In this document: piece by piece, positions 7,892 to 63,593 of the stretch
Layout of the letters: each line of letters starts with the position of its first letter
How positions within the stretch are numbered: the first letter of the stretch is position 1
Sequence record: OP557970.1
Source of the DNA: Escherichia phage ph0021
DNA length: 64,000 nucleotides
Direction: 5' to 3' (one strand)
The notes under the pieces: generated by a model
Told to the model about the DNA's origin: nothing
Database searches by the model: none
Seen by the model: the letters and a program-made list of their open reading frames with translations, nothing else
Made by a program: the position numbers and the translations under genes

Positions 7892-7920
7892 TATAGTATC
7901 ATGTTTAAAGCAGAAGTAAA
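7892..7920 (-). promoter_or_regulatory. promoter upstream of motA (GTTTAC -35, TACTAT -10; spacer contains TGCTTTA MotA-box-like motif)
   Basis: Minus strand reads GTTTAC-17nt-TACTAT then leader with GGAG before the motA ATG. Confidence 0.5.
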
Positions 7921-7960
7921 CACTTTTTTGCACTCTTTTTCAAGAGCTCTAATAAAGTAC

Positions 7961-8188
7961 TTACTTAATGTTCAGATTACGAACTTCGATTTCGTCTTCA
8001 TGGGCAAAATCAAACTGTTTGAATTCTGTGTCACCTTTAAATTTAAAAATCATTGTGAAGAAAGTCAGAACACCAGGTTTTTCTTCACGAACTCCACAGA
8101 TATCATATTCAATACCATCTACAACCAGTTTGTTAGCAGTCAGAGCATTTTTAGCTTTAACGATTTCGTTTTCGATTTTAAATTTCAT
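7961..8188 (-). CDS. hypothetical protein (motA.1 position)
   Basis: 75 aa ORF between motA and 52. Confidence 0.5.
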   Translation of the reverse strand: MKFKIENEIVKAKNALTANKLVVDGIEYDICGVREEKPGVLTFFTMIFKFKGDTEFKQFDFAHEDEIEVRNLNIK

Positions 8189-8237
8189 TTTTTGTATCTC
8201 CGGGTTGTTTGTTTCAGTTCATTTATTTGATAGTTGT

Positions 8238-8268
8238 ATAGTACCACAGTATGCTTTGGTTGTAAACC
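8238..8268 (-). promoter_or_regulatory. T4 early-type promoter
   Basis: Minus strand GTTTAC-18nt-TACTAT with AT-rich upstream element; member of repeated promoter family. Confidence 0.6.
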
Positions 8269-8298
8269 GTTTTGTGAAAAAATTTTTGAAATAAAAAA

Positions 8299-8318
8299 GG
8301 GAGAGCCTCGGCTCTCCC
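8299..8318 (-). terminator. intrinsic terminator hairpin
   Basis: GGGAGAGC-CTCG-GCTCTCCC perfect 8 bp stem; minus-strand U-run follows. Confidence 0.55.
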
Positions 8319-8323
8319 TAAAA

Positions 8324-8473
8324 TTACTGCATGACTGTGATAACTGTCATGATAACACGTTGAATTCCGAACGCAAGAAGACCTCCTGCTACGGCAGGAA
8401 CAACACCTAAACCCGCCAGTAAAATGCCACCAGATACTAATGCAGCGCTTGTAATACCTATGAATGGACTCAT
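8324..8473 (-). CDS. small hydrophobic protein (49 aa)
   Basis: ATG overlaps gp52 stop (ATGA); Gly/Ala/Leu-rich, likely membrane peptide; read by hand. Confidence 0.45.
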   Translation of the reverse strand: MSPFIGITSAALVSGGILLAGLGVVPAVAGGLLAFGIQRVIMTVITVMQ

Positions 8474-9798
8474 TTGATTTCCTCTAAATCTTTGGTGTAT
8501 TCTGTAACTACATCAGTAGTTTTCCAATATTCGTTTTCTTCTTTTTTAGCTTTAGCTTCTTCAGCAAGTTTCTTTGCTTCGTCGGAAGTCATATGAAAAA
8601 TATTCATTCCGACTAGTTTATCAACATAAGAAGAATACATCTCAATTTTAGAAAGTTCTTCAGTCAGTTCTTTGCGAGTTTTACCCTGTACAACGATTTC
8701 ACCTGAAATTACTTTCTTAATGAAATGTGCCTTGGCAAAAGCTAAACGAAAAGCTGACTCAGTTTCTTTAATTTTATTATCAATTCGTTTTTGGACATAA
8801 GTTTTACGAACTTCAACGAAGTCTTTGATTAAATCAACTACGTTATCGTAAACTTGTAGTTTTCCTTTCTCATTAATAACCGTAATATTCTGAGAACGAC
8901 GCTCAATCAACCCGAAGTCTTTCATAATTTTTGCATGGCGTTCTTCTTCATTATCGCTCAAAGAGTATTCTTTTCGGAATTTAACTTTGAATCCAAAACC
9001 ATGCTCACCACAAGCATCATCCCATGTAATGAAGCCTTTATCTTCAAGTGGGTCTAAGATTTTACTCACATAAATTTCACGATCATACTTATACGGAATC
9101 TCAGTGATATGCATTTGAGTTCGTGAAGTAAACTTATATGTTCCACGAATTTCATATTGCCCATCAATTTCAACGACTTCACCACGAAATTCTGGGAATT
9201 CTACCTTCGGTTTAGTTACTTTCTTTCCTTGAAGAGCTTGTAATACAGCTTTCTTGACAGAAGAAACACTATGAGGAAGAATGTAAGTTGCATAACCAGT
9301 TGCAATACCGGAAACGCCATTAAGAAGAACAGTAGGAATAATAGGCAAATAGAAAGCAGGCGGAATGTGTTCTTTATCTTGATGTACCGGAGCATATTCA
9401 GTATCTTTATATACGTTATAGAAATTTTTACTTACACGAGCAAAAATATAACGACTTGCTGCTGCCTTTTGGACAGTACGAGAACCAAAGTTTCCTTGAC
9501 CGTCTAACAGAGGAAAGTTATTATTCCAAGTGTTAGCCATCAAAGCACCTGCGTCTTGCGCAGAGTTTTCACCATGATGATATCCAAGGTCCGCTACACC
9601 GCCTGCGATAGAAGCGAGTTTGTGAAACTTATCTTTATTTCCTCGTGCCAAATCAAGAGCTCGAGCAATAACAAATCGTTGAACTGGCTTAAATCCGTCA
9701 ATCATATTTGGAATGGCACGATTTTCAACCGTGTACATAGCATAAGCCAATGCTTCATTATCAATGATACTTTTTAAATCGCGATTATTCAGTTGCAT
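8470..9798 (-). CDS. 52: DNA topoisomerase II medium subunit gp52 (GyrA-like)
   Basis: 442 aa, GyrA N-terminal-domain-like sequence, length matches T4 gp52. Confidence 0.9.
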   Translation of the reverse strand: MQLNNRDLKSIIDNEALAYAMYTVENRAIPNMIDGFKPVQRFVIARALDLARGNKDKFHKLASIAGGVADLGYHHGENSAQDAGALMANTWNNNFPLLDGQGNFGSRTVQKAAASRYIFARVSKNFYNVYKDTEYAPVHQDKEHIPPAFYLPIIPTVLLNGVSGIATGYATYILPHSVSSVKKAVLQALQGKKVTKPKVEFPEFRGEVVEIDGQYEIRGTYKFTSRTQMHITEIPYKYDREIYVSKILDPLEDKGFITWDDACGEHGFGFKVKFRKEYSLSDNEEERHAKIMKDFGLIERRSQNITVINEKGKLQVYDNVVDLIKDFVEVRKTYVQKRIDNKIKETESAFRLAFAKAHFIKKVISGEIVVQGKTRKELTEELSKIEMYSSYVDKLVGMNIFHMTSDEAKKLAEEAKAKKEENEYWKTTDVVTEYTKDLEEIK

Positions 9799-11377: not shown

Positions 11378-11408
11378 AATAGTACCACGGAAGAACAGTC
11401 TTGTAAAC
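11378..11408 (-). promoter_or_regulatory. T4 early-type promoter
   Basis: GTTTAC-18nt-TACTAT, conserved leader CAACTACGGAGG. Confidence 0.65.
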
Positions 11409-11593: not shown

Positions 11594-11857
11594 TCATAGT
11601 TCAATCTCAACGATTTCCAAGTGTTTTTGTTTTATTGCCTTTTTAACACAATCATGGACTAAATATGACCATGAATCATTATATTCTCCATTAACTAATC
11701 GTTGGAGATCTTCACGTGATGATAAGTAAGGTTGATCTGATTCCCATTTTGATAAAAATACTGCAGTAAAAATATCTCCTTCATCTGTAGTTGAAGTCGT
11801 AAATGCAATAAATTCACCGGTAATTTTATGTTTAGCGTAATAAAATTTAAATTTCAT
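11594..11857 (-). CDS. hypothetical protein (88 aa)
   Basis: Real start MKFKFYYAKHK after GGAGG leader; track ORF N-extended into promoter. Confidence 0.5.
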   Translation of the reverse strand: MKFKFYYAKHKITGEFIAFTTSTTDEGDIFTAVFLSKWESDQPYLSSREDLQRLVNGEYNDSWSYLVHDCVKKAIKQKHLEIVEIEL

Positions 11858-11884
11858 TTTTACTCCTCCGTAGCTGATAGTTGT

Positions 11885-11914
11885 ATAGTACCACGGTCCT
11901 TGTGGTATGTAAAC
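11885..11914 (-). promoter_or_regulatory. T4 early-type promoter
   Basis: GTTTAC-18nt-TACTAT, AT-rich UP region, conserved leader. Confidence 0.65.
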
Positions 11915-11931
11915 TGTTTTGTGAAAATTTT

Positions 11932-12489
11932 TTAAATGGAAAGATACCATCCATTGTAGTTGCTTTTTCTTACAACCTTACGAAGGTCTTCTCTGTCACC
12001 GATGAACTTCGGAGTGTACTGGATGACACCTGGATGAATTTCTTTAGTGTTGAATATAATTATACAGTCAGCGACTTGATGATTTAGAATGGGCCCTAGA
12101 TTTATTCCAGAACCGTATGGATACTCTCCGCTGCATCCTGTTGTTACAGAAATCCAACGTGAGCCAGTTTGATGTGTCTTAACTTCTACACGAAGCCCAC
12201 AGTATTTTGGATGTGCTAAAACATCCCACGCGTATGTATATGGATCATCGACATCTTCTTGACCTTTATTAACATACCCGCTTAGCCAATCTGCTACAAA
12301 AAACTCTGCGTATACAGCAATACGACATCTTTCAATAACTTCTGCTTTATCCTGGTTCGGGTTTTGTTTTAAAGAGTATCTTGCAGTATCAGCAATTTTG
12401 ACCTTCATTTCACTAGTCAAGTCACTGTTCGATAGGGTAAATGTCGGAATCTGAAATAGTCTCTGTAAACCCGGATTCGTTTTCTGCAT
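11932..12489 (-). CDS. denB: endonuclease IV DenB
   Basis: 185 aa ORF at T4 denB position between rIIB and ndd; length matches. Confidence 0.65.
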   Translation of the reverse strand: MQKTNPGLQRLFQIPTFTLSNSDLTSEMKVKIADTARYSLKQNPNQDKAEVIERCRIAVYAEFFVADWLSGYVNKGQEDVDDPYTYAWDVLAHPKYCGLRVEVKTHQTGSRWISVTTGCSGEYPYGSGINLGPILNHQVADCIIIFNTKEIHPGVIQYTPKFIGDREDLRKVVRKSNYNGWYLSI

Positions 12490-12751: not shown

Positions 12752-12771
12752 AATTTTTCCTTAAAACAAAA

Positions 12772-12783
12772 GGGCCGAAGCCC
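12772..12783 (-). terminator. GGGC-CGAA-GCCC hairpin (UUCG loop on minus-strand RNA)
   Basis: Perfect stem flanked by A/T runs; intergenic. Confidence 0.45.
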
Positions 12784-12789
12784 TTTATT

Positions 12790-12984: not shown

Positions 12985-13000
12985 AATTTTCCTTAGTTAA

Positions 13001-13012
13001 GGGCCGAAGCCC
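13001..13012 (-). terminator. GGGC-CGAA-GCCC hairpin
   Basis: Identical hairpin core just downstream of rIIB stop. Confidence 0.45.
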
Positions 13013-13951
13013 TTATTTAAATTGTTCAGTAACGTCTTCAACTACTTCGTATTGGCAGGTACGCATTTTAGCGTCGTTATAATCAATCGGAATTGATACC
13101 ACATCGCGAGGATGCACTTTAACTTTTACGACTCGGCTGGTTGAACTGCCAAAGTGACGAATATAAGATTTAGAACACACATGCAGACCACGAGAACAAG
13201 TTTGTGTATCATCGTCATTCACACGAGTACGTGGCATTTTAACTACTTTACCCGGACTGTTATCAAAGGTATTTGAGTGACAGTCAAAGTAATTGCTGCG
13301 AACTACTTTCCAAGCATAGAAGTAGCCATCTTCTGTAATTTCAATATCGTTTGCTACCAAGAAATCAAAGAGTCGAGATACCGCTTTTTGGCTTGGGTTT
13401 TCCAGCAGATTTTCCAAGAACGGAAAATAAAATTCAAAGTTTTCGCCTTTTTCCATCGAGTCAAGAATACGATCAACCAAACCAGACCGCAATTCAATAT
13501 TTTGATAGAACAAGCTTCCACCTTCAATTCGAACATCGCCGGAAATATATTTTTCAACAGCGCGACGAACATTAATTTTTTGTGCTGCTTCTTCCAGCTT
13601 ATCCGCTACAAGCAGATTAAGAATTTCCTGGAAGTTTGAATGAGTATTAGGAGTTGCGTTATAAGTTACACCGTCAACAGTAATTGAAATGAATTTTTTA
13701 GATGCATTCCAAATAATGTCAGATTTAGCAACTGGAGCAATAACTGCATCGCTATTAACTTTAACTGTAATATCACCACTAATAGTAACTTTAGAGCGTT
13801 CTGCTTCTTCAGCATTTTTCAAAACACGACGGATTGTGTCAACCGATACACCTTGCCAATCAGCCAATTCCTGCTGGGTGTAATTACCACTTGAATACAG
13901 TTTAACAATTTCAGCTTGTTCGTTTTTGGTCAGGCATTTAATATTGTACAT
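13013..13951 (-). CDS. rIIB: rIIB protein
   Basis: 312 aa, length and position match T4 rIIB directly downstream of rIIA. Confidence 0.9.
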   Translation of the reverse strand: MYNIKCLTKNEQAEIVKLYSSGNYTQQELADWQGVSVDTIRRVLKNAEEAERSKVTISGDITVKVNSDAVIAPVAKSDIIWNASKKFISITVDGVTYNATPNTHSNFQEILNLLVADKLEEAAQKINVRRAVEKYISGDVRIEGGSLFYQNIELRSGLVDRILDSMEKGENFEFYFPFLENLLENPSQKAVSRLFDFLVANDIEITEDGYFYAWKVVRSNYFDCHSNTFDNSPGKVVKMPRTRVNDDDTQTCSRGLHVCSKSYIRHFGSSTSRVVKVKVHPRDVVSIPIDYNDAKMRTCQYEVVEDVTEQFK

Positions 13952-16379: not shown

Positions 16380-16409
16380 ATTATACCACATCCTTGTGGT
16401 AAAGTAAAC
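16380..16409 (-). promoter_or_regulatory. T4 early-type promoter (GTTTAC / TATAAT)
   Basis: GTTTAC-18nt-TATAAT; spacer holds palindrome CCACAAGGATGTGG; overlaps 3' end of gene 39. Confidence 0.65.
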
Positions 16410-18229
16410 TACTGGCTCATCCATTCTTTACGAAGGTCAGCATTATCTCCCATGAGCATTTCAAAAAGCTCTTTCCAATTCTCAGGAAGTTTAACAACAT
16501 CATATACTGGGTTTTGAATCATCTCACGATATTCAGATTTTTCCAAAGAGCCAAGTCCTTTAATATAACGGATGCTATGTTTAGGTAGAGCATCTTTGGC
16601 ACTCTCATATTCAGCGACTGTATAAAACCATTCTTGTTTTTTACCAATTTGAGCGATGATTACAGGAGTTTTGACAAAACGAATTCGTCCTTGCTCAAAC
16701 AATTCTGGCCAATTACTAAAAAATCCGAGCAAAGAAGGATAAATGCTTCCTAGACCATCATGGTCGGCATCAGTCATAATAGCAATATTATGATAATTTA
16801 AGTTTTCAGCCTTTTCACCGAGAACTAATCCAGTGATTGCGCAAATATCAAATAGTTCTTTGTTTTTAAGCATATCTGCATAAGACATACCCCAACTGTT
16901 GAGAACTTTACCGCGCAATGGATAACCACCGTGAAGTTCTTTATCACGAACATCAATAAGATATCCGATAGCCGAATCACCCTCAGTTAAGAATAGTGTA
17001 GTGTCAGCATCTTTACCGCAAAGATTCGCTTTAATATGTTTATGAACCTTAGCTTTAGAAGCCTTTTTAGCTGCTTTAGTTTCTGCTGCTTTTTCTGCTG
17101 CCAATTTACGGGCCAAGGCAGCTTCAATAATCGGCATTAAAATTGCTTCATTATTTAGAATAGCGCGTGAAATCTTTTTAGCATCAAGTTGAATATGACT
17201 ACGAATTTCGCCAAATGGAGAAGTCAAACGCTCTTTAGTTTGAGAATCAAATCGCATGTTTTTCATATCACGGACAAACATAACGATAGTCAAACATTCT
17301 TTGACACGTGCTTTAGTCACATCAATTTTGAACTTACGTTTGATTTGCGGAATAAGGTCTTCACAAATATCATCCATAACACAGTCAATGTGATGGCCAC
17401 CATTCTTAGTGTGAATGTTATTGACGTATGTTAATTGACGAAAACCATCCGGTGAACGACCAACCGCAATAGAACAATTTTCTTGTTCTTGAACAATAGC
17501 ATGCTCATCATATTGGCGTGCATATTTCTTAAAATTGCCCTGAACCTTTTTACCATTAAAGGTAAATTGAATATCAGGATAAACTACTGCAAGTGTCTGG
17601 AGACGATCTAGTGTAATGTCAAGATAAACTTGAGATAGCTCATTAGTTTCAAATGACATAAAATCAGGAATGAAAGTAACACGTGTTCCTTTCCATTTTC
17701 CAGGAATATCTTCCCATGATTTATTTTCCATACCATTTGAACAACGAACTACAATATTATTTTGACCGTCGCCAGTTTCACCAACAAACATCACAGAAAA
17801 AATGTTTGTCAAACTAGAACCAACACCGTTCATACCGCCAGTGACGCGTTCTTTATCATCACCGAAGTTACCACCTGCTTTTGGAATAGTCCATGCAGCA
17901 ACAGGACCAGGAATTTCTTCACCGGTAGGTGTTTTGACCATCGCTTGTGGAATACCACGACCGTTATCTTCAACTGTTACTTGATTGTTTTTAATAGTAA
18001 CATTAATTTTATTCGCGAATTTAAACTTAGTACGAATACCTTCATCTACTGAGTTATCGATAATTTCATCAATAAGCTTAACAAGACCAGGTACATACTG
18101 AACACTTTCCCATTTACCAAACAGAAAGCGCTCATGCATTTCATTAGCAGAAGAGCCAATGTACATGCCACTACGCTTTTTGATATGTTCAATATCGCTC
18201 AGAATTTTAATTTCATTCTTAATCATCAC
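16409..18229 (-). CDS. 39: DNA topoisomerase II large subunit gp39 (GyrB-like), unsplit form
   Basis: 606 aa continuous ORF with GyrB ATPase/Toprim sequence; no gene 60 interruption. Confidence 0.9.
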   Translation of the reverse strand: MMIKNEIKILSDIEHIKKRSGMYIGSSANEMHERFLFGKWESVQYVPGLVKLIDEIIDNSVDEGIRTKFKFANKINVTIKNNQVTVEDNGRGIPQAMVKTPTGEEIPGPVAAWTIPKAGGNFGDDKERVTGGMNGVGSSLTNIFSVMFVGETGDGQNNIVVRCSNGMENKSWEDIPGKWKGTRVTFIPDFMSFETNELSQVYLDITLDRLQTLAVVYPDIQFTFNGKKVQGNFKKYARQYDEHAIVQEQENCSIAVGRSPDGFRQLTYVNNIHTKNGGHHIDCVMDDICEDLIPQIKRKFKIDVTKARVKECLTIVMFVRDMKNMRFDSQTKERLTSPFGEIRSHIQLDAKKISRAILNNEAILMPIIEAALARKLAAEKAAETKAAKKASKAKVHKHIKANLCGKDADTTLFLTEGDSAIGYLIDVRDKELHGGYPLRGKVLNSWGMSYADMLKNKELFDICAITGLVLGEKAENLNYHNIAIMTDADHDGLGSIYPSLLGFFSNWPELFEQGRIRFVKTPVIIAQIGKKQEWFYTVAEYESAKDALPKHSIRYIKGLGSLEKSEYREMIQNPVYDVVKLPENWKELFEMLMGDNADLRKEWMSQ

Positions 18230-18253: not shown

Positions 18254-18283
18254 ATTATACTCCGGTAATCATAAAGCTAAAGG
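18254..18283 (-). promoter_or_regulatory. candidate middle-type promoter upstream of gene 39 (AGCTTTA box, 12 nt, TATAAT)
   Basis: Minus strand TTTAGCTTTATGATTACCGGAGTATAAT directly after terminator hairpin. Confidence 0.4.
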
Positions 18284-18294
18284 CCCGAAGGCCT
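18281..18294 (-). terminator. AGGCC-CGAA-GGCCT hairpin
   Basis: Perfect 5 bp stem immediately after stop of upstream ORF. Confidence 0.5.
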
Positions 18295-18295
18295 T

Positions 18296-18556
18296 TTATT
18301 TAAAACGAATAGTTGAATCCTTAAAGAACAGTCCAGAACATACTGTTCCTTCTACTTTCTGCCCAGTAGGTCCAATAGCACGAAATCCAGTATGTTGGAA
18401 ATCATTTTCAGAGCAACCGAACCAGTTATATCCAGTGATTTCAATATTAGTAAAACCGCTTGAAGACAAAACTTTGGTTGCATTATCAGCATCAGTACAT
18501 CCTACTAAAGACACTACTAATACTAATGCTGCAATAGAACGATTAATATATTTCAT
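18296..18556 (-). CDS. putative lipoprotein (39.1 position)
   Basis: 86 aa, signal peptide with lipobox LVGC. Confidence 0.55.
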   Translation of the reverse strand: MKYINRSIAALVLVVSLVGCTDADNATKVLSSSGFTNIEITGYNWFGCSENDFQHTGFRAIGPTGQKVEGTVCSGLFFKDSTIRFK

Positions 18557-19375: not shown

Positions 19376-19473
19376 AATTTCCTCATTAATTGAACATTGG
19401 AGCGATGCGTTTCAGAAGAGTATCAGCGCACCTTTAACGAATTATCCATTTTATTCTTCAAGTTGTTTTCTGT

Positions 19474-19516
19474 ATCAGTAGTTGATATTGATATAGTACC
19501 ATAATCAACTACTGAT
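19474..19516 (-). promoter_or_regulatory. promoter-like -10/leader element flanked by 13 bp perfect inverted repeat
   Basis: ATCAGTAGTTGAT ... ATCAACTACTGAT arms around TACTAT; no GTTTAC -35. Confidence 0.4.
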
Positions 19517-19546
19517 GTATATAGTTTTATGAAAAAATTTTAAACT

Positions 19547-20082: not shown

Positions 20083-20112
20083 ATTATACTCTGGTCCCAA
20101 GAGTTTGTAAAC
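20083..20112 (-). promoter_or_regulatory. T4 early-type promoter (GTTTAC / TATAAT)
   Basis: GTTTAC-18nt-TATAAT upstream of motB-like gene. Confidence 0.65.
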
Positions 20113-21191: not shown

Positions 21192-21221
21192 ATAATACCA
21201 TAACTAACCGAGGAAGTAAAC
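21192..21221 (-). promoter_or_regulatory. T4 early-type promoter (GTTTAC / TATTAT) inside long palindrome
   Basis: GTTTAC-18nt-TATTAT; flanked by inverted repeat TCCTCGGTTAG/CTAACCGAGGA. Confidence 0.6.
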
Positions 21222-25056: not shown

Positions 25057-25086
25057 ACTATAACATTTTTACCTTAACTTGTAAAC
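25057..25086 (-). promoter_or_regulatory. T4 early-type promoter
   Basis: GTTTAC-18nt-TATAGT upstream of 248 aa ORF. Confidence 0.55.
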
Positions 25087-26392: not shown

Positions 26393-26421
26393 ATCATATC
26401 ACCGTTAGAAAGGAAAGTAAA
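26393..26421 (-). promoter_or_regulatory. T4 early-type promoter
   Basis: GTTTAC-18nt-TATGAT, leader with GGAGG before modB ATG. Confidence 0.6.
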
Positions 26422-26433
26422 CAACTTTTTGAA

Positions 26434-28468: not shown

Positions 28469-28539
28469 AGTGCTCTCCTCTATAAGATAATTCTATTATA
28501 CCATACTCATTTTGATATGTAAACCATTTAAATGAAAAA

Positions 28540-28563: not shown

Positions 28564-28807
28564 TTATTCACCAGTTACTTTCCACAAATCTTCATTTGCA
28601 GCAATCCATTCAGTACGTTGATTTTCTTCATATACTGTAGAATATGCTGCTTTTTCTGAAGGGAACGTCTGGTAATGAGCACCAGAAATTTTGTGAACAT
28701 CAGAATAAAGAGGGAAAGCTACAGAAATTTCTTTACCCTGAATTGTTACCACCATCAACTGCTTGGTCAAATGTTTTAATATTAACATAACCGCGAGTAC
28801 TAGCCAT
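28564..28807 (-). pseudogene. soc: small outer capsid protein Soc, reading frame disrupted
   Basis: ATG after SD gives MASTRGYVNIKTFDQAVDGGNNSG then stop; conserved GKEISVAFPLY...WKVTGE continues in another frame. Confidence 0.6.
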
Positions 28808-28823
28808 GTAATTCTCCTTTTAT

Positions 28824-29033
28824 TTAAATTACATGATTATTTATAATAAATTCTCGCGGAACGTTAAAATACCCGATTTTAGTTAATATAACAACATCAC
28901 CGTTAATAATTACCGGAGAATAATCTTCTGGAGCATTAAATTTCCAATGGGCTCTAATATTATATCCATCAGAACCAAATGCTCGAGTAGCCGGTCTCCC
29001 GGCTTTTTGCCACGCGTAGAAATCAAATTTCAT
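28824..29033 (-). CDS. hypothetical protein
   Basis: 69 aa ORF between 56 and soc. Confidence 0.45.
   Translation of the reverse strand: MKFDFYAWQKAGRPATRAFGSDGYNIRAHWKFNAPEDYSPVIINGDVVILTKIGYFNVPREFIINNHVI
28838..28845 (-). promoter_or_regulatory. late promoter TATAAATA
   Basis: Exact TATAAATA on minus strand about 30 nt upstream of soc ATG. Confidence 0.6.
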
Positions 29034-29224
29034 TTTGAATGCTCTATAATTAATTTTAAAGCTTCTTCACTGACAAAAATTTCGTCAGGACCTTCTATAA
29101 CTTCAACCGTACGAAGTTGATTAGTTAAGAGCTCACATACGAGCTCCTTGTTATAATCTTTAAATAGTTGGTCAATACGTTTCTTATGGGCTTTCTTAAG
29201 CTGACGCTTATTTAAACGAGCCAT
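29030..29224 (-). CDS. hypothetical protein
   Basis: 64 aa, basic. Confidence 0.45.
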   Translation of the reverse strand: MARLNKRQLKKAHKKRIDQLFKDYNKELVCELLTNQLRTVEVIEGPDEIFVSEEALKLIIEHSK

Positions 29225-32521: not shown

Positions 32522-32581
32522 GATAATCTCCTCAGTAGTTTATGTTTATATAGTATCTCAATTTCCAATAAAAGTAAACAG

Positions 32582-33023: not shown

Positions 33024-33081
33024 AACAATCTCCTCATTTAACCAACAAGACTACTATACCATAGTCTTGTCAGCTTGTAAA

Positions 33082-34509
33082 CTAAAATTTTAATTCATTT
33101 GCCAAAGCATCTAACTGAGCTCGTGTGGATTCATTTCTTTGATAACGATTCTGCTCAGCCTGAATCTGTTGTGAACCTGCTACTTCGTTCACTTCAGTTG
33201 GAGTAGAATCTTGTTCAATTTCTACCCATTTCTGATTTCCCTTTTGAACACCCATCAAAAACTTATTCCATTTGTTCTTATCACCATATCGTGATTTGAT
33301 TTGCTTAATGAGTTGTTGTTCAGCAGCTGCTAGCTCCTCGGTTTCAATGACCGCAAGCATAAAATCGGCTGTTGCTGGAAGACCAGCAGATTCTGCAATA
33401 TCGCTCATGTTAACATCAGAAGAATCCCAAGCTTGTTTACCAACCTGTGCTGCAGTCCAAAGAACAGTTTCGGTTTCAACAGCCAGAGCACGCAATTCCT
33501 CTGCAATAGCTTTAACAGTTGTGTAACTATTTTCTGAATAAACTCTAATGCGGCAAGATTTACAAATACCTAGATAGTCGACAATAATGATTGTTGGAAC
33601 AAAATTCTTCTTGAGCTTTAATTCATTTAAAAGTGATCGAAATGTATTAGCGTCTGCTCCACCAGTAGGATATTGCTTAACGATTAAACGACCGAGAGTA
33701 GATTTCTCACGCCATTTTTCCATTTTTCCTTTATACTCAGTGTAAGAAATATGTCCATCATCAATGTCATCAAGAGAAACATCAAGCATATTAGCATCAA
33801 TACGCTTAGCACAGACTTCTTCTGCCATTTCCATGGAAATATAAAGAACATTATGTCCGAGCTGTAAATAATCTGCCGCTAATGAACACAATCCTAATGA
33901 TTTACCAACGTTAACGCCAGCCATTAAAACGTTCAGTGTTCCAGTTTCAGCTCCGCCTTTCGTAATTTTGTTTAGAATTCTGAGTTTAAATGGAACCTTA
34001 CGAGCTTTATTCATATAAGATAGCCAACGTGCTTCATAGTCATCCATCCAATCATGGCCAACGTAGCTATCAAATGAAATTGATAATGCTTGGCGCATGA
34101 TGTCAGGAATAGCACCTACATCTGGCATTTTCTTATTTCGTTTTTCTGGAGGAAGCTCAGCATTGGTTTGAATTTCGATTATTTTAGACGTAGCATTAAA
34201 CATCGCCCTTTGCTGAACATATTTTTCTGTTTCTTTTATTAACCAACTGTGGTCTTCTGGAGAATCAGCTAGTTTTGAAATAAGTGTTTTTACACCAGAA
34301 TATTCTGTTTCAGTAAATGAACTATTTTCTAATGCAACATTTAACGCATTAATAGATGGAACGCTATGGTACTCATTAACATGAGATTTAATTAATTTGA
34401 ATGTATTTTTAGCTGGACCACTTTCAAAATATTCTGAATCCATATATGGCCAAACTTTTGAAAAATAAGCTTGATCAAATATGAGATGAGAAAGAATAAT
34501 TTCTACCAC
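33082..34509 (-). CDS. 41: replicative DNA helicase gp41 (DnaB-like)
   Basis: 475 aa, Walker A GVNVGKS, matches T4 gp41 length. Confidence 0.9.
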   Translation of the reverse strand: MVEIILSHLIFDQAYFSKVWPYMDSEYFESGPAKNTFKLIKSHVNEYHSVPSINALNVALENSSFTETEYSGVKTLISKLADSPEDHSWLIKETEKYVQQRAMFNATSKIIEIQTNAELPPEKRNKKMPDVGAIPDIMRQALSISFDSYVGHDWMDDYEARWLSYMNKARKVPFKLRILNKITKGGAETGTLNVLMAGVNVGKSLGLCSLAADYLQLGHNVLYISMEMAEEVCAKRIDANMLDVSLDDIDDGHISYTEYKGKMEKWREKSTLGRLIVKQYPTGGADANTFRSLLNELKLKKNFVPTIIIVDYLGICKSCRIRVYSENSYTTVKAIAEELRALAVETETVLWTAAQVGKQAWDSSDVNMSDIAESAGLPATADFMLAVIETEELAAAEQQLIKQIKSRYGDKNKWNKFLMGVQKGNQKWVEIEQDSTPTEVNEVAGSQQIQAEQNRYQRNESTRAQLDALANELKF

Positions 34510-38771: not shown

Positions 38772-38801
38772 ATAGTACCATAGAAGAACAGTCTTGTAAA
38801 C
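38772..38801 (-). promoter_or_regulatory. T4 early-type promoter
   Basis: GTTTAC-18nt-TACTAT, UP element AAAAAATTTCACAAAA. Confidence 0.65.
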
Positions 38802-41675: not shown

Positions 41676-41689
41676 GGGGCCGAAGCCCC
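41676..41689 (-). terminator. GGGGC-CGAA-GCCCC hairpin
   Basis: Perfect stem between regA stop and gene 43; TATAAT follows on minus strand. Confidence 0.4.
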
Positions 41690-41693
41690 TTGC

Positions 41694-43588: not shown

Positions 43589-43623
43589 AATTTCCTCATT
43601 CAAGTTTTAGTGTAAATTATAAA

Positions 43624-43635
43624 GGGCCGAAGCCC
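43624..43635 (-). terminator. GGGC-CGAA-GCCC hairpin between 45 and 44
   Basis: Hairpin followed by TTTATAAT on minus strand. Confidence 0.4.
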
Positions 43636-43639
43636 TCTA

Positions 43640-44329
43640 TTAAAAATCGTGGGTAGAATCAGCTTCAAGAGCTACTACATAATTCGCGTGTTCACCTTCA
43701 AATTTAGCAGCACCTTGTTTACCTTTTGCCCAGAGCAGAAGTTTATAATTTCCTGGTTGCATTTTCATATTTGCCATATTGATAATGAAATTAAATGTAT
43801 TTTCACCATCATAATCACCAAGAGTCAAAGAATATTTAACACGGGTCAGAGCAGAATCTTCTACTTTATTAAAACCGTTAATTACGATTTTACCTTCTTT
43901 TACCGTGATAGCAATTGTATCAATCTGCAGACCACGAGATACACGCAACAGCTGTTGAAGGTCTTCAGCTTTAATTTCAGTAACAACAGATGCTACTGGG
44001 AATGGAATTGGTTTATTAGGAGCAACTACTGTACTCGGATCGGCTGCTGGCCAAAAAATTGTTGAACGGGCATCAGCAATTTTAATATTTCCATCTTCTG
44101 ACTGGGAAATTTCTGCATCATCATCATTAACTAAAGACAGAATACCGAGAAAACCATTCAAATCGTAAATTGCTACATCAAAATCAATAGTGTCAGAAAT
44201 ATTTGCTTCCGCATAAGTTGTACCATTAACTGCACGAGTCATAATAAATTGACCGGATTTAAGCATAATACCAGAGTTAATAGTAGCGAAATTTTTAAGC
44301 AGAGCAGTAGTATCTTTAGACAGTTTCAT
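43640..44329 (-). CDS. 45: sliding clamp gp45
   Basis: 229 aa, matches remembered T4 gp45. Confidence 0.9.
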   Translation of the reverse strand: MKLSKDTTALLKNFATINSGIMLKSGQFIMTRAVNGTTYAEANISDTIDFDVAIYDLNGFLGILSLVNDDDAEISQSEDGNIKIADARSTIFWPAADPSTVVAPNKPIPFPVASVVTEIKAEDLQQLLRVSRGLQIDTIAITVKEGKIVINGFNKVEDSALTRVKYSLTLGDYDGENTFNFIINMANMKMQPGNYKLLLWAKGKQGAAKFEGEHANYVVALEADSTHDF

Positions 44330-47157: not shown

Positions 47158-48173
47158 TGTGTTGCCTCTACATATAACTGATTTGCATATTGAATAAGTG
47201 CTTCGCGATCAGAATCAGTGATGTCTGGAATTGCATTAATGTATTCTTCCATCAATGTCTGAAGAGATTGAACTTCAACTTCTTCACTATCATCTGACTC
47301 GACAGAGTTATCAATCTTTGACACAACTCGTAATGAATGCACAACTTTTTCTAGTTCAGATTCGAACTTCGTCAGATTTTTGTCTACCTCAGTTACTATA
47401 ACACGTACTGATAGATTTGTAAAATCTTTATAGTCAATTTTTCCCTTAAATGGGTATTGAATTCGACGATGCCAGGTAGTATTGTTTGGAATAAATTCCA
47501 TTCGTTCTGTTTCTGTATCAAACATCCAGAACCCACGAGGGTCATTCTCGTCACCTGCAGTTAGTGTCCATGGTGTCCCAATATATCTGACGTTAGCAGC
47601 CTCAGAGATAGTATGGAAGTGACCAGACCACACTTCTTTATAAGTCTTAAGGAAATCAGGTTCAAGACCGTGAGATTTCATTCCTTTATAAAAATAAAAT
47701 CCGTTCAGTTCCCAGTGACCAATACAAAAAGAAGCAGATGAAGTTTTGATGTGCTCAAGAATTTCACCAGTATTTTCTTCACACATCCAAGGAATTAAAT
47801 CAATTAAACATCCGTCAAAATCTACCGTAGTAGGCTTATCATATACTTTAACATTAGGATATTTAGCCAAAAGCTCAGTAGAGGCATTTGGATGCATTAC
47901 ATTTTTGTAGTGGAGATCGTGATTTCCTACAATAGTATGTAATGTGATTCCAGCAACATCAAGCATTTGAACTATTTCACGGGCAAACTCCATAGTTTTA
48001 TGTGTGATTGCTTTTCGCACATCAAAAATATCGCCGTATTGAATCCATACAGTAATTCCATTTTTCTTAGAATATTCTATTGCTTGTTTAATTCCATCAA
48101 TTTGAATACCGCGAATCCACTCATCATCAGCTTTAACGCCTAAATGCCAATCACCTAAATTTAAAATTTTCAT
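47154..48173 (-). CDS. 47: recombination endonuclease subunit gp47 (Mre11/SbcD-like)
   Basis: 339 aa, phosphoesterase motifs GDWHLG, GNHD. Confidence 0.9.
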   Translation of the reverse strand: MKILNLGDWHLGVKADDEWIRGIQIDGIKQAIEYSKKNGITVWIQYGDIFDVRKAITHKTMEFAREIVQMLDVAGITLHTIVGNHDLHYKNVMHPNASTELLAKYPNVKVYDKPTTVDFDGCLIDLIPWMCEENTGEILEHIKTSSASFCIGHWELNGFYFYKGMKSHGLEPDFLKTYKEVWSGHFHTISEAANVRYIGTPWTLTAGDENDPRGFWMFDTETERMEFIPNNTTWHRRIQYPFKGKIDYKDFTNLSVRVIVTEVDKNLTKFESELEKVVHSLRVVSKIDNSVESDDSEEVEVQSLQTLMEEYINAIPDITDSDREALIQYANQLYVEATQ

Positions 48174-48308: not shown

Positions 48309-48335
48309 ATTATATCAAACTCCGTATAAAGCTAA
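48309..48335 (-). promoter_or_regulatory. candidate middle-type promoter (AGCTTTA box, 12 nt, TATAAT)
   Basis: Minus strand TTTAGCTTTATACGGAGTTTGATATAAT right after hairpin; same architecture as element at 18254-18294. Confidence 0.35.
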
Positions 48336-48336
48336 A

Positions 48337-48348
48337 GGGCCGAAGCCC
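48337..48348 (-). terminator. GGGC-CGAA-GCCC hairpin after a-gt
   Basis: Perfect stem immediately after a-gt stop. Confidence 0.5.
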
Positions 48349-48349
48349 T

Positions 48350-49552
48350 TTATTTTGTAATAATGTCAAACTGCTCTTTAAAGCAGAAGCTTGAATCTTG
48401 GTGCTGATACAAAAATTCATAAGCTTTTTCGCGTTCACGGTCATAAAGAGCTCGGTCAGATGACAGTTCTTTAATACGTTCAAATGTTGATTCCATGTCA
48501 TTTTCATCAAACCAAACAATACCGCTATCATGAGAAATTAATGGAGTGTTATCAACACGGAATTTTAAATTTTCGCCAGTAGATTTCCAAAATACCGGAA
48601 TTGTTCCACATGCACCAAGCTCGAGATGAGTATATTCTAAAGAACGTTGTAGATATTTTTTATCCAACTTACTCAACTGATAACCAAAACCGGATTTACT
48701 CATACGTTCAAGCATTTCGCTATTTACATAACGGTCAAGAATTTGCGTTGGCAAATTAGAAGCAATTTTAATTTGGTCTACTTGATGAAGACGATAATAC
48801 TCGTATGGAATTCCTTTTTCTTTAATAGGAATGAACGCTGGAGAACGTTCCAGACCTTCCATAATAGTACTTAGTCCTGCAGGTTTAAGATGTTTTTCGT
48901 GAAAATCAAACATCTGGTAAAAACCTTTCCATGTAGTCGTACGACCAATCCAACGGTTGATATTCATGTTAATTTCAGAAACATCTTTCCAGTAGGTTGA
49001 TCGAACCTTTGCAATATCCATCGGAGGCTGAAAGTTATATACTGTCGGTGCTTCTTCAATATCATCAAACAGAGAAACTGTTTCAGGATACCATTCTTTC
49101 ATCAGAACTTTATTAAAATCGCCATTATCAGAATGGCTAAAAATAACATCAGCTCGACGAACAGTTTCTTCTAATCCCAAATTTCGACGCAAAGAAAGAG
49201 AAGAATGGTCATGTTGATAAACTACAACACGAACAGAAGGTTTAATGTTATCAATAATTTTTTTATAGTTATTAATAGTGTCTTCTTCAACCGAAGTAGC
49301 AGGAACTGAATTAATAATTAGAATATCACAATCATTTACCAGCTTAAGTGTTTTATCATATTCTTTTGCCAATAAAACCGGAATTGAAAATGATTTATAA
49401 TCATGCGCGCAATTACGAGTAAATGATTTATCTTTAGCATAAACCAAAGTTACTTCATGACCATTTTTAATAAACCAATCACGTTGCTCGAGTGAGAATT
49501 TTGTTACACCACAACCTTCAAGACCTCGAGCCATAAAAATACATACTTTCAT
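48350..49552 (-). CDS. agt: DNA alpha-glucosyltransferase
   Basis: 400 aa, length and position after gene 47 match T4 a-gt. Confidence 0.8.
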   Translation of the reverse strand: MKVCIFMARGLEGCGVTKFSLEQRDWFIKNGHEVTLVYAKDKSFTRNCAHDYKSFSIPVLLAKEYDKTLKLVNDCDILIINSVPATSVEEDTINNYKKIIDNIKPSVRVVVYQHDHSSLSLRRNLGLEETVRRADVIFSHSDNGDFNKVLMKEWYPETVSLFDDIEEAPTVYNFQPPMDIAKVRSTYWKDVSEINMNINRWIGRTTTWKGFYQMFDFHEKHLKPAGLSTIMEGLERSPAFIPIKEKGIPYEYYRLHQVDQIKIASNLPTQILDRYVNSEMLERMSKSGFGYQLSKLDKKYLQRSLEYTHLELGACGTIPVFWKSTGENLKFRVDNTPLISHDSGIVWFDENDMESTFERIKELSSDRALYDREREKAYEFLYQHQDSSFCFKEQFDIITK

Positions 49553-51935: not shown

Positions 51936-51975
51936 ACATTATCCTCAATTGCATTAAAATTTTATTATCCAAAAA

Positions 51976-51987
51976 GGGCCGAAGCCC
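51976..51987 (-). terminator. GGGC-CGAA-GCCC hairpin
   Basis: Perfect stem flanked by A-run and T-rich sequence. Confidence 0.45.
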
Positions 51988-52188
51988 TTAGCTAAACCGT
52001 TTGGCACCCTTCCAGCCTTCGTACATCATTGCAACTGATAATGACAAAGCTCCTTCGCATGCTGCATACTTATTATTCCAGAACCAATTTAGAAAAACTT
52101 CATCCTCAATACCATTGTGTTTCATGTTCTGGAAAAATTTGGCGCGTTCTTCAGCAATTCGCTGCGATAATTTAGATTCAGGATTCAT
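51988..52188 (-). CDS. hypothetical protein
   Basis: 66 aa. Confidence 0.45.
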   Translation of the reverse strand: MNPESKLSQRIAEERAKFFQNMKHNGIEDEVFLNWFWNNKYAACEGALSLSVAMMYEGWKGAKRFS

Positions 52189-52327: not shown

Positions 52328-52621
52328 TCAGCTATAACGATAACACTCGTTTGATTTACGCTTAGCAACTCGTTGAGAAGTATTGTAATCAAAATCATCG
52401 TCAATGTAAACTGATTTTTTCAACTTTCTTACTTCACCACGTAATTGGCGATTTAACTCATCTTTAACTTCTGAATCAATGCCTTTCATTCTACGCCATT
52501 TATCTGAGCGAAAAATGTTTTCAACCATATCTTTATGACTTACACCATCAGGAGCTTTACGCTTTCCGAAATAGTCATAATCACGAACTTTCAAGTCTTT
52601 ACGACGATACGTTTTACCCAT
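52328..52621 (-). CDS. hypothetical protein
   Basis: Probable start MGKTYRRKDL (97 aa), basic. Confidence 0.45.
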   Translation of the reverse strand: MGKTYRRKDLKVRDYDYFGKRKAPDGVSHKDMVENIFRSDKWRRMKGIDSEVKDELNRQLRGEVRKLKKSVYIDDDFDYNTSQRVAKRKSNECYRYS

Positions 52622-52826: not shown

Positions 52827-52856
52827 ATAATACCACAGTTTGAACTTCTTGTAAAC
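52827..52856 (-). promoter_or_regulatory. T4 early-type promoter (GTTTAC / TATTAT)
   Basis: GTTTAC-18nt-TATTAT. Confidence 0.6.
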
Positions 52857-57177: not shown

Positions 57178-57472
57178 GTCCCATCTCCATATCAATTAAG
57201 TCATTTATTGTAGGTTCATTATATACTGTTTCTTCATCAGTGTAAACCGGTTCTTCCGGCTCTGGCTCTACAGTTTCCCATCTAGCCGCCCACCAAGGTT
57301 TAACCCCGAAGCTTATTAAGTTCTTCATAATCAATCCAGGATTCTAATCCTGATGGCAAATCAGATTCAATTTCCCAAAGAAGTTCTTCAATTTTCTGAA
57401 GACGATCTAGTTCTTCGGCTGGAATAGTAACCATTGACGGAGTTCTTGATACACTAATATCGTAAATCATAT

Positions 57473-60589: not shown

Positions 60590-60619
60590 ATTATACCACA
60601 TCCTTGTGGCAAAGTAAAC
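60590..60619 (-). promoter_or_regulatory. T4 early-type promoter (GTTTAC / TATAAT)
   Basis: GTTTAC-18nt-TATAAT with palindromic spacer CCACAAGGATGTGG. Confidence 0.65.
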
Positions 60620-61638: not shown

Positions 61639-61646
61639 GGTGTTCC

Positions 61647-62558
61647 TTAAGATTTAAGTAAATCAACGATTTTAATTAATTTTTCACGCTCAGATTTAGC
61701 TTTACTACTCAATCCAGATAGTCTGAAAATTTCATCATCATATTGTTGAATAGAAATATTCAGCTCTTCAATCTGTTTATTAAAATAATCAATTTGTTCA
61801 GAATGTTTTTCGTTACTACGAACTGGTACAGGTTTTGTAGGCAATTTAGTTGAACTGGATTCATCCGGGCGATAAATTAAAATACAATTTGAACCAATCG
61901 GGCATTTAGCACCAGACACATATTCTAGTGTTCCAGCTTCTTTTAAAACTTCAAAAGCTAAACAGAGATGATGACCCATATTGACATAATCTGTAGAGTG
62001 AGCTCTGATATAATAATCATCTCCACGAGTACTAAATTTAAAGCATTTAAGGTCTTCTGTATTATTAGTTTTAAAAATCATTTGTTTATCTAGACCTTTA
62101 GCTAATCGAGCACCTAATGCTAATAATCGTCGTTGATTTTCCCATAAATCCGCAATCATTTGATCGAATGACAATTTCGGCATTAGTCGACCATAAAGGT
62201 CATATCCTTTATTATAATTGCGAAGAATTTCACTCGCGTTAATACGAGACAACGCTCCAATTTTATTAAGGGCTTTCATGATGCGATTAGATAAACTCAT
62301 TCCAGACCCGTTTGTTCGCTGTAAATGTTTTTCTAATCCAAATCCAATATCAACTTTAAATTTATCTAAAATTTTGGCATGAACATCTCTGTCAATAACA
62401 TTCAAATCCAAAGTTGGGTTAAATCTATGAAAAAATTTATCTGGCTCTCCACGACGAAGTACAGTCCATTCATTCATCATTTTTTTATTAACTAAAGATT
62501 TAATTACTGCATTGACATTATTAATTACTACTGACATATTTTCCTCACTCAATTTCAA
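61647..62558 (-). CDS. hypothetical protein with C-terminal coiled coil
   Basis: 303 aa. Confidence 0.55.
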   Translation of the reverse strand: MKLSEENMSVVINNVNAVIKSLVNKKMMNEWTVLRRGEPDKFFHRFNPTLDLNVIDRDVHAKILDKFKVDIGFGLEKHLQRTNGSGMSLSNRIMKALNKIGALSRINASEILRNYNKGYDLYGRLMPKLSFDQMIADLWENQRRLLALGARLAKGLDKQMIFKTNNTEDLKCFKFSTRGDDYYIRAHSTDYVNMGHHLCLAFEVLKEAGTLEYVSGAKCPIGSNCILIYRPDESSSTKLPTKPVPVRSNEKHSEQIDYFNKQIEELNISIQQYDDEIFRLSGLSSKAKSEREKLIKIVDLLKS

Positions 62559-62952
62559 TTTTACTAAATACGCAGAATATAATGGAAAAGACTATATAAG
62601 CACCACACACAGATTGAACTAATACCATTCCAAAGAACCAAACAATATTATCAAACCTTGTCTGTTTTACGTCGAAAGGACGTAAACTTACAGTAATATT
62701 ATCACCTTTTTCTATTGAAGAATACATCTCCGGTGAAATATATTCGCTAAATCTATAACCGTCTTTGAGTTCATATACAGCAATAAACGATAAACTAGAC
62801 CCCTTTCCTTGAGTTCCTGTAAGGGTATTAACTACAGTAACATCATAATCTTTATAATGCATATAATCATTAATAGCATAATAACCATATGCAACTACTA
62901 CGCATAAACAGCATATCAATAAATTCAATCTTTTAATTATCAACTGTTTCAT
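62545..62952 (-). CDS. hypothetical membrane protein
   Basis: 135 aa, hydrophobic segments at both ends. Confidence 0.5.
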   Translation of the reverse strand: MKQLIIKRLNLLICCLCVVVAYGYYAINDYMHYKDYDVTVVNTLTGTQGKGSSLSFIAVYELKDGYRFSEYISPEMYSSIEKGDNITVSLRPFDVKQTRFDNIVWFFGMVLVQSVCGAYIVFSIIFCVFSKIEIE

Positions 62953-62974
62953 AATAATCTCAATTAAAAGGGCT

Positions 62975-63005
62975 TAGAACCATTATACCATCCTTGGTAT
63001 AAAGC
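62975..63005 (-). promoter_or_regulatory. candidate extended -10 promoter (TGGTATAAT)
   Basis: TATAAT with upstream TG and palindromic TATACCAAGGATGGTATA; no GTTTAC. Confidence 0.4.
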
Positions 63006-63007
63006 GG

Positions 63008-63535
63008 TTATGCGAGTACCGTCTTTAACCGTTCTTCAAACTTCCGAAGAGTATTCTGGCGTTCAGCTCTTTGCTTTTTGTAAGTTTCAATACGCTCTGA
63101 AATGAGAGTGTATCGTTCATTTACTGATTCTTTCATAAAATCAGGAATTTCACGAGAAGCTTTAATCTCATCAAATTTATCAATAACAGCTTGCTCTTCA
63201 GCAATTAAGTTATCATACATCAAAATATCTTTCTTGATGAACTCAATATCTTCTTGAGTTACACGAGATAATTTAGATGCTTTATCCTTTTTGTACTGTT
63301 CGTTAGTATCACGAGACCAGTGTAATGTACGATTTTTATTCGTATTCTTATAAATTTCTACAATACCAATCTCATCAATAATAACGATCCAATTCCAACG
63401 GGATTTGTAAATTTGTCCTCCATCAACCGTGATTTCACCTCCGATTGAGATGTCATTAAAGAACTTGCTTTGTGCTTCAGATTTAAATTTACCATCGTTG
63501 TAATTTACCAGGTTGAAAATATCTTTAGCGTTCAT
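63008..63535 (-). CDS. hypothetical protein
   Basis: 175 aa, helical C-terminus. Confidence 0.5.
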   Translation of the reverse strand: MNAKDIFNLVNYNDGKFKSEAQSKFFNDISIGGEITVDGGQIYKSRWNWIVIIDEIGIVEIYKNTNKNRTLHWSRDTNEQYKKDKASKLSRVTQEDIEFIKKDILMYDNLIAEEQAVIDKFDEIKASREIPDFMKESVNERYTLISERIETYKKQRAERQNTLRKFEERLKTVLA

Positions 63536-63563
63536 TTTGTGTTCCTCCGTAGTTGATAGTTGT

Positions 63564-63593
63564 ATAGTACCACAGAGGAACAGTCTTGTAAAC
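63564..63593 (-). promoter_or_regulatory. T4 early-type promoter
   Basis: GTTTAC-18nt-TACTAT, leader CAACTACGGAGG. Confidence 0.65.

Follow-up and report, generated by a model that had tools for sequence, protein, structure and literature searches.

The window analysed here is a stretch of 64,000 nucleotides from Escherichia phage ph0021 (OP557970.1), and our subject is a family of similar promoters dispersed over its minus strand. Up to position 5127 the plus strand carries the 3' end of gp36, followed by gp37, gp38 and the holin gene t. The remainder of the window is the leftward early and middle region, spans asiA to nrdC.9 and is encoded on the minus strand; its genes include asiA, motA, 52, ndd, denB, rIIB, rIIA, 39, motB, dexA and dda, as well as srd, modA/B, 41, uvsX, 43, 45, 46/47, 55, nrdD and the nrdC.x genes. 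Coding sequence (CDS) fills 94.8% of the window and non-coding DNA 5.2%. Many Escherichia and Yersinia T4-like phages are ~97% identical to it, and the Pseudomonas phage PsgM02F (a Tequatrovirus, OR584013.1) is 100% identical.

The promoter family and its T4 counterparts

A preliminary description of this DNA had listed 13 intergenic sites that share GTTTAC, a spacer and TACTAT or TATAAT. All 13 are indeed minus-strand sites, none more than 1 nt from where it had been placed, and 11 of them match GTTTAC-N17/18-TAYWAT exactly, the exceptions being 25057 (TATAGT) and 26393 (TATGAT). The list was incomplete, as the sites at 5432, 28495, 32550 and 33053 had been missed, together with weaker matches inside genes at 47395, 52382 and 57218. 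Searching for GTTTAC-N16-20-TAYWAT we found 16 matches, exclusively on the minus strand, where shuffled sequences lead one to expect 0.29 (maximum 2). GTTTAC alone occurs 36 times on the minus and 14 times on the plus strand, and 10 times versus never when only copies lying fully inside non-coding DNA are counted. We then aligned the copies, as had been proposed, and derived a matrix of two blocks (block 1, the upstream (UP) element and the -35; block 2, the extended -10 and the -10) that was applied with a threshold of ≥12 bits. This matrix detected 21 sites on the minus strand and none on the plus strand, compared to 0.21 per strand in Markov shuffles. When each seed was left out in turn, 17 of the 18 matrix seeds kept 8-43 bits, and the matrix also recovered two sites that had not been seeds, 33053 (dmd) and 19493.

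The 18 aligned copies give the consensus aAaaAa.TttcA.AAA.t.GTTTAC(N12)tgTGgTAttATa.aactAtcaa, and the columns of its extended -10/-10 part, tgTGgTAttAT, are high in information content. GTTTAC is followed after 18 nt (17 nt at 7893) by TAnnAT or TAnnGT in 17 of the 18 strong sites; 19493, with ATATAC, is the sole strong site that lacks it. Most copies have the UP element aAaaAa.TttcA.AAA at -60 to -38. Many overlap the end of the upstream gene, and where this is the case at 16380, 20083 and 60590 the UP element is weak. At four junctions (16409, 20112, 33082 and 60619; TAGTTTAC) the preceding gene ends with a TAG stop overlapping the -36 G, and the UP element therefore falls in coding sequence there. 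Seventeen of the 18 strong sites are situated 19-43 nt from the Shine-Dalgarno sequence (SD) and start codon of a leftward gene, the outlier being the leader of 111 nt at cef (19493), and the leaders usually carry GGAG or GAGG. The copies had been called near-identical, which is true of their UP, -35, TGn and -10 blocks but not of the spacers, most of which differ. A conserved leader was said to follow often, and this was overstated: CAACTACGGAGG is exact at two sites and has one mismatch at a third. Allowing ≤1 mismatch, CTATCAACTAC follows the -10 at 5 of 18 copies, and other matches lie off-promoter at 7704 (plus strand) and 37612.

Early promoters of T4 (Pe) have reportedly been described before, by Liebig & Ruger in 1989, Wilkens & Ruger in 1994 and Miller et al. 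in 2003. For 17 of our 18 strong sites T4 has a sequence of 94-100% identity at the same gene junction, namely at asiA, motA, ndd.4, ndd.6, rIIA.1, cef, motB, motB.2, srd, modB, mrh.2, sp, dmd, imm.1, 55.6, nrdC.4 and nrdC.8. Our matrix, derived from the window and applied to the complete T4 genome, found 37 sites, all of them on the early-transcribed strand. The family also matches the published consensus of T4 early promoters, in which GTTTAC occupies -36 to -31, the UP element at -40 to -44 is A-rich, and a GT-rich extended -10 accompanies the -10 box (Hinton 2010, PMC2988021). These T4 promoters of the 'UP/-35/TGn/-10' type out-compete host promoters, and one of them, P8.1, has a mutational analysis behind it (Hinton 2010, PMC2988021); by position, it is our motB.2 site. 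Proteomics classed ModA, ModB, MotB and Dmd as early in T4. We conclude, with a probability of roughly 93%, that the family consists of the sigma-70-dependent early promoters of a T4-like phage, an already known class to which the preliminary description had correctly assigned it. Architecture, strand and gene junctions are all as in T4. The difference is allelic only: motA has a second, different promoter (7893) and an extra 75-aa open reading frame (ORF) here, and some leaders (11885 and 38772) are swapped.

Each unit comprises an A/T-rich UP element for the alpha subunits of RNA polymerase, the -35 block GTTTAC (the conserved -36 G in front of TTTACN), a spacer of 17 bp whose end forms the extended -10, TGTGG or TATGG, and the -10 TAYWAT, followed by a short leader of ~20-40 nt whose SD is mostly GGAG or GAGG. 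Unmodified host polymerase would fire these promoters straight after infection, and transcription would run leftward, on the minus strand, into host-takeover and replication genes. From the T4 literature we infer that early transcription is initiated at these sites in this phage. The resemblance of the copies has two reasons, the selection of all of them towards one very strong consensus and, for some, shared descent or the exchange of segments.

Several points weigh against this identification. A generic sigma-70 scan was not enriched in the AT-rich window (73 matches vs 84.5 expected), and three of the matrix matches lie inside genes and may be non-functional. The T4 GenBank record has no promoter features save one note naming Pe133295, and this promoter, via that note, and P8.1 are the only T4 promoters whose names were confirmed, P8.1 alone being a named and studied promoter that was tied to one of our sites. 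Furthermore, start sites were assumed to lie 7 nt past the -10. The result of the generic scan would also suit the view that our sites are chance matches in AT-rich DNA. Because that scan shows no excess, the signal is specific to the GTTTAC family, and the case rests on the family motif and the correspondence with T4. Against chance stand the 16 matches where 0.29 were expected, the strand bias of 21:0, the position at gene starts and the conservation in T4 and across genera; the motif and strand counts refute it, leaving it next to no probability, and we rejected it.

Another explanation, that the family represents middle promoters dependent on MotA/AsiA, has one element in its favour. The preliminary description had noted two elements, near 19474 and 62975, that keep the -10 and the leader and lack GTTTAC. 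The first (core 19493-19522) is a member of the family, with a degenerate -35. The second is not a member: at 62982..63005, minus strand, upstream of nrdC.7, we found a MotA box, GCTTTA, then 12 bp and TATAAT, which fits the definition of a GCTT core centred near -30 and 11-13 bp before a -10 of the form TAnnnT. The element is 99% identical to T4, where PnrdC.7 is a MotA-dependent middle promoter with its start at 53325 (Hinton 2010 Table 1, PMC2988021), and by its sequence it is the counterpart of PnrdC.7. Patterns of the form GCTTNA-N11-13-TANNNT are also enriched in the window (34 vs 12.9 expected). However, in the 18 family members GTTTAC stands at -36 to -31, the spacer measures 17 bp and none has a GCTT with its centre at -30, and the TGCTTTA of the 7893 spacer is 7 bp from the -10, where 11-13 bp are required. 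A true -35 and the lack of a correctly placed MotA box set the family apart from the T4 middle promoters; we rejected this explanation for the family as a whole and consider it highly improbable. On the minus strand MotA-box patterns occur, for example, at 16221, 18254, 44359, 44988, 48309, 49577 and 62982, and by an approximate conversion of coordinates several appear at the listed T4 middle promoters PrIIA, P39, P45, P45.2 and P47.

Individual promoters and their surroundings

The coordinates of the individual promoters give the core, from the -36 G to the end of the -10, and all lie on the minus strand. The promoter of asiA (start 5400), at 5432..5461, sits within the asiA.1 coding sequence, scores 34.9 bits and is 97% identical to T4 at 161211. 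The promoter adjoining motA (start 7855), at 7893..7921, reads GTTTAC-N17-TACTAT and scores 36.5 bits; it has no T4 counterpart, and distant relatives have a promoter of the same type ahead of motA. The MotA-box-like TGCTTTA in its spacer is 7-8 bp from the -10, too close for activation. We observed (T/C)GCTT(T/C)AA at the equal spacer position in the motA promoters of distant relatives (L036-L042, motA -68 sites), not in T4, and an element of this sequence may serve MotA autoregulation. The counterpart of T4 PmotA, at 8238..8267 (46.7 bits), precedes the 75-aa ORF (start 8188) and is itself preceded by a terminator hairpin at 8298-8319. The promoter of a 37-aa ORF resembling ndd.4 (start 11350), at 11379..11408, was identified by motif, matrix and T4 counterpart. 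The next one, at 11885..11914, has the leader CAGCTACGGAGG, scores 46.4 bits and corresponds to T4 167086. The annotated CDS 11594-11950 starts inside this promoter, which is probably an annotation error, the true start codon with SD and ATG probably being located near 11857, inside that CDS.

The promoter of rIIA.1 (start 16354), at 16380..16409, is 100% identical to T4 at 2458, and the TAG stop of the gene 39 homologue overlaps its -36 G. At 19493..19522 an early-type promoter with the degenerate -35 ATATAC (28.4 bits, not a seed; T4 6630) precedes cef by a 111-nt leader; a small plus-strand CDS, 19397-19504, that overlaps this promoter and its inverted repeat is probably spurious. The promoters of motB (start 20038) and motB.2 (start 21163), the latter being the counterpart of P8.1, lie at 20083..20112 (T4 7215) and 21192..21221 (T4 8218). 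That of srd (start 25020), at 25057..25086, has the -10 TATAGT and scores 27.7 bits (T4 11851), and that of modB (start 26366), at 26393..26422, has TATGAT and scores 38.1 bits (T4 13186). The mrh.2 promoter (start 28468), at 28495..28524 (T4 15288), is preceded by a terminator hairpin with a UUCG loop. Further along we found those of sp (start 32521), at 32550..32579 (33.8 bits; T4 20109), and of dmd (start 33023), at 33053..33082, with the -10 TATAGT (24.2 bits, not a seed; T4 20612) and a -36 G that is overlapped by the gene 41 stop.

At 38772..38801 a promoter of 44 bits (T4 27080) precedes a 78-aa ORF (start 38734) that is inserted ahead of imm.1. The 55.6 homologue (start 52796) has its promoter at 52827..52856, likewise of 44 bits (T4 41706), and motif and matrix both identify the promoters of nrdC.4 (start 60561), at 60590..60619 (T4 50973), and of nrdC.8 (start 63535), at 63564..63593 (T4 53943). 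The three matches inside genes differ in standing. The one in the 49.1 homologue, 57218..57247 (18.6 bits, -1.7 bits when left out; T4 47452), lies ~34 nt upstream of pin (start 57177), lacks the UP element and is possibly a weak early promoter. The promoter-like match in the coding sequence of the 55.5 homologue, 52382..52411 (26.7 bits), has no start codon near and is of doubtful function, as is the weak match in gene 47, 47395..47424 (TTTTAC; 20.2 bits).

Some other features of the window and its relatives were observed. An Rfam search of the window matched no family. The host entry of OR584013.1 is Pseudomonas coronafaciens pv. garcae, despite ~97% identity to Tequatroviruses of E. coli and Yersinia. 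The PsgM02F genome carries early promoters of the E. coli sigma-70 type, and its authors reported no other Pseudomonas virus in the same cluster. A second repeat family on the minus strand consists of AAGGGC-UUCG-GCCCUU hairpins at gene ends (12769-12786, 12998-13015, 18272-18301, 41667-41696, 43614-43643, 48327-48356 and 51966-51995), which we take to be hairpins and terminators already known from T4, of the very stable C(UUCG)G tetraloop type.

Proposed recombination between promoter copies

The preliminary description had suggested that the repeats could drive recombination and that gene cassettes might be bounded by them. The recombination idea has already been published, for promoter-early stem-loop cassettes, PeSLs (Arbiol et al. 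2010, PMC2839356; Comeau et al. 2014, PMC4122927). Both there and here an early promoter and SD are repeated between small genes, and the PST/T4 consensus, TTTACW-N17-TAYWAT, is the same motif. The region upstream of motA is variable and fits the shuffling proposed for PeSLs. A cassette at 7902..8223, minus strand, that is absent from T4 consists of the 75-aa ORF and its own promoter and is flanked by promoter/leader copies; the flanks 7866-7901 and 8211-8246 share 36 nt with 92% identity. The 75-aa ORF and promoter 7893 are thereby placed between the PmotA counterpart (8238) and motA. We found this cassette in 128 phage records; T2, RB59, ime09 and many others lack it, and among relatives the number of units of promoter plus small ORF upstream of motA varies from 1 to 3. 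One close relative (L031, IMGVR_UViG_2974787500_000001) has lost 45 bp at a point ~430 nt upstream of motA. The deletion takes away the T-tract of the terminator together with the UP element and -35 of the distal promoter, and leaves the 75-aa ORF without a promoter of its own. We had considered L031 as a third arrangement of the motA cassette and rejected it, as it differs only by this deletion.

The copies also show a mosaic of modules. Two subfamilies, and only two, share spacers: those of 11379, 38772 and 63564 are identical at 12/12 or 11/12 positions, and those of 16380 and 60590 at 11/12. The leaders regroup in a different manner, 38772 with 19493, 11885 with 63564 and 7893 with 8238, and the same gene can have differing leaders in close relatives. 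Identical spacers combined with swapped leaders indicate that some copies share descent or have exchanged segments. As short direct repeats, the promoter copies may occasionally serve as recombination points, as in the PeSL idea.

We therefore weighed whether the elements are chiefly mobile regulatory cassettes, similar to one another by spread and gene conversion and acting as linkers for the homologous recombination of small genes. The 36 nt shared by the flanks of the 75-aa ORF cassette, its presence or absence among Tequatrovirus records, the 1 to 3 units upstream of motA, the identical spacers at three unlinked sites with their reassorted leaders, and the ability of T4 to recombine at homologies down to 6-10 bp all speak for it. 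Other findings count against it, and against recombination as a general role of the family. Among ~18 insertions, deletions and replacements relative to T4, only 7902-8223, 11620-11866 and 38488-38720 adjoin a promoter or leader, the others being mostly homing endonucleases, an intron or changes at junctions that lack a promoter. Promoters are found at 18 of ~116 leftward junctions, so that 3 of 18 is the background rate expected of gene junctions taken at random. The majority of copies hold a fixed position, T4 and this phage sharing the junction. The terminator stem-loop upstream of the promoter that defines PeSLs is present at only 2-3 of 18 copies, strongly at 8238 (minimum free energy (MFE) -20.1, z -4.2) and 28495 (MFE -18.3, z -3.4) and weakly at 7893, whilst 15 of 18 lack it, and the stem-loops that we describe below span the promoter instead of preceding it. 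Moreover, the role as a linker would add to promoter function and not replace it. We regard mobile cassettes as a possible explanation of the family, though one on the improbable side. Of the suggestion that the repeats drive recombination, one clear cassette at motA and the mosaic of modules stand, and an excess of indels at promoters was not found; comparison of the copies indicates that exchange between them has happened, yet most of the variation is apparently not explained by it.

Gene replacements relative to T4 in which no promoter is involved were seen at 36026-36971, 29758-30453 and 28846-29223; segA and beta-gt of T4 are replaced by a beta-glucosyl-HMC-alpha-glucosyltransferase, dam by a different homing endonuclease, and segF by two small ORFs. 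The large topoisomerase subunit is encoded by a single ORF of 606 aa (16409-18229), and the 39/60 split, mobA, 60.1 and the 50-nt translational bypass of T4 (2794-3910) are absent.

Predicted hairpins spanning the promoters

We folded the read-through RNA of each promoter from -46 to 12 nt past the start codon, and predicted hairpins that span the promoter at seven sites of the window. In four of them the SD/AUG lies in the 3' arm. At 11379 (MFE -22.7 kcal/mol, z -4.4) and 63564 (-25.8 kcal/mol, z -4.9) the spacer pairs with the leader and SD, in helices running from 11398 to 11354 and from 63582 to 63540; at 21192 (-31.3 kcal/mol, z -9.7) an 18-bp helix, 21214 to 21171, joins spacer and SD; and at 26393 (-21.8 kcal/mol, z -3.6) a helix from 26403 to 26358 pairs the -10/start-site region with the SD and AUG. 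In the other three the SD/AUG is not in the 3' arm: 33053 (-20.2 kcal/mol, z -4.1) has a 15-bp helix centred on the -10 (33075 to 33040), 20083 (-24.0 kcal/mol, z -3.6) an inverted repeat, 20104 to 20070, that brackets the -10 and covers a GGAG of the leader, and 19493 (-33.7 kcal/mol, z -2.6) a 13-bp perfect inverted repeat across the -10 (19516 to 19474). At the first four sites the SD/AUG region is predicted to pair, with a probability of 0.63-0.72, to bases that precede the start site. When the primary transcript is folded, the predicted paired share of this region is 0.08-0.12 at 11379, 21192 and 63564, and 0.35 at 26393. Taking the window and T4 together, the predicted pairing of the SD with upstream bases is 0.6-1.0, compared to ~0.1 paired in the primary transcript. 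An SD/AUG helix with its 5' arm upstream of the start site is predicted at these four sites and at ~10 of 35 T4 promoters, and not at the other copies.

The complementarity is specific to the promoter's own leader. The spacer is complementary to the leader/SD in 6-7 of 18 copies here and in 14 of 37 in T4, and in the window spacers pair with their own leaders with a mean of -11.6 kcal/mol, versus -8.0 kcal/mol with other leaders (permutation p = 5e-5); six window sites reach ≤-17.9 kcal/mol. In a non-redundant set of 45 promoters, drawn from the window, T4 and metagenomic relatives, 10 attain ≤-15 kcal/mol, compared to 2.6% of cross pairs; of the 16 T4 promoters outside the region that matches the window, 7 do, compared to 4.6% of cross pairs. 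Among the 35 T4 promoters with an SD and ATG near, 17 have z ≤-3. Nine combine z ≤-3 with SD pairing ≥0.75, namely those of motB.2, modB, nrdC.8, regB, ipII, alt.-3, 30.9, alc and ndd.4, and mrh.2 is borderline with an SD pairing probability of 0.5.

Across three genera the arms change whilst their pairing is kept. Those of motB.2 are TCCTCGGTTAGTTATGGT/ACCATAGCTAACCGAGGA here and TTCTCCTCATG/CATGAGGAGAA in JS98-like phages, with complementarity maintained, as it is among the three distinct arm pairs of nrdC.8; at motB and cef, too, the arms differ in other genera and still pair. RNAalifold on a MAFFT alignment of the motB.2 promoters gave no usable structure, the arms of the two clades being in different registers. 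At regB there are three arm pairs, and 6 positions change on both sides. We counted regB pairs on an ungapped alignment anchored at GTTTAC and GGAG, because MAFFT broke the register, and found that 62 of 75 cells pair, versus 34-41 in slid registers.

These predictions led us to a proposal in which we place little confidence, namely that roughly one in three T4-type early promoters forms part of a hairpin. The 5' arm of this hairpin would be the spacer between the -35 and -10 of the promoter itself, and the leader, mostly including the SD GGAG or GAGG, would supply the 3' arm. Read-through RNA from upstream would fold and hide the ribosome site, whilst RNA started at the promoter, being without the 5' arm, would stay open; only the latter would be translatable and cleavable by RegB, and read-through RNA would be silent for that cistron. 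A promoter inside a hairpin is known for the T4 genes e, soc, 49 and I-TevI (Uzan & Miller 2010, PMC3014915), the only cases named in the reviews consulted. We infer the same logic here, with a 5' arm upstream of the start site and long transcripts that hide the SD/AUG. In those genes, however, the enclosed promoter is a late one and it is the early read-through RNA that is silent, whereas here the promoter inside is an early one and its own spacer is predicted to act as the anti-SD arm. We found no description of spacer-leader anti-SD pairing at early promoters in the literature searched, although older T4 papers may mention it. The window itself contains a soc homologue (28788-28850), which has a late promoter, TATAAATA, at -57 and a hairpin, CATGTAATT/AATTACATG, that covers the AUG.

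The RegB nuclease of T4 targets the GGAG of early leaders, and according to a review its strong sites fit GGAGRAYARAA. This consensus is exact in the 38772 leader (GGAGAATAAAA) and has 1 mismatch in the motA, motB, motB.2 and cef leaders. Window-wide it is not enriched (16 vs 10.4), with 5 of the matches in promoter leaders.

It is also possible that the inverted repeats do not gate translation. They might instead act in processing or stability, be pause or termination signals for read-through RNA, or be by-products of template switching at quasi-palindromes. The 3' arm at 19493, 20083 and 33053 reaches over the start-site region and not over the SD, the gaps between genes are so short that a hairpin between cistrons has to overlap the promoter, and, according to a review, secondary structure protects GGAG from RegB. 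Yet the helices have no U-tract after them, and we therefore rejected the spanning hairpins as terminators. In addition, the arms of motB.2, nrdC.8 and regB differ by clade and the 3' arm nevertheless always includes the SD, which is the pattern expected if hiding the SD is selected. We judge a function other than gating to be unlikely. Gating itself has its own difficulties: the idea is built on folding predictions, three of the seven window hairpins have a 3' arm that falls short of the SD, and the covariation at regB comes from three clades.

The promoters themselves are nothing new, and what they yield is annotation, 18 early promoters and 1 middle promoter of which none is in the genome's record or paper. 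To the PeSL idea the window adds one clean example at motA, with the caution that most T4 differences are away from promoters. If the proposed gating were true, products such as ModB, RegB, Alc, MotB.2 and Ndd.4 would be made only during the short interval in which early promoters fire. According to reviews, the limiting of early products and the transcript-dependent sensitivity of GGAG are incompletely understood. Gating by promoter-spanning hairpins would explain how toxic takeover proteins are limited to an immediate-early pulse in T4-like phages, and why one GGAG is sensitive to RegB in some transcripts and protected in others.

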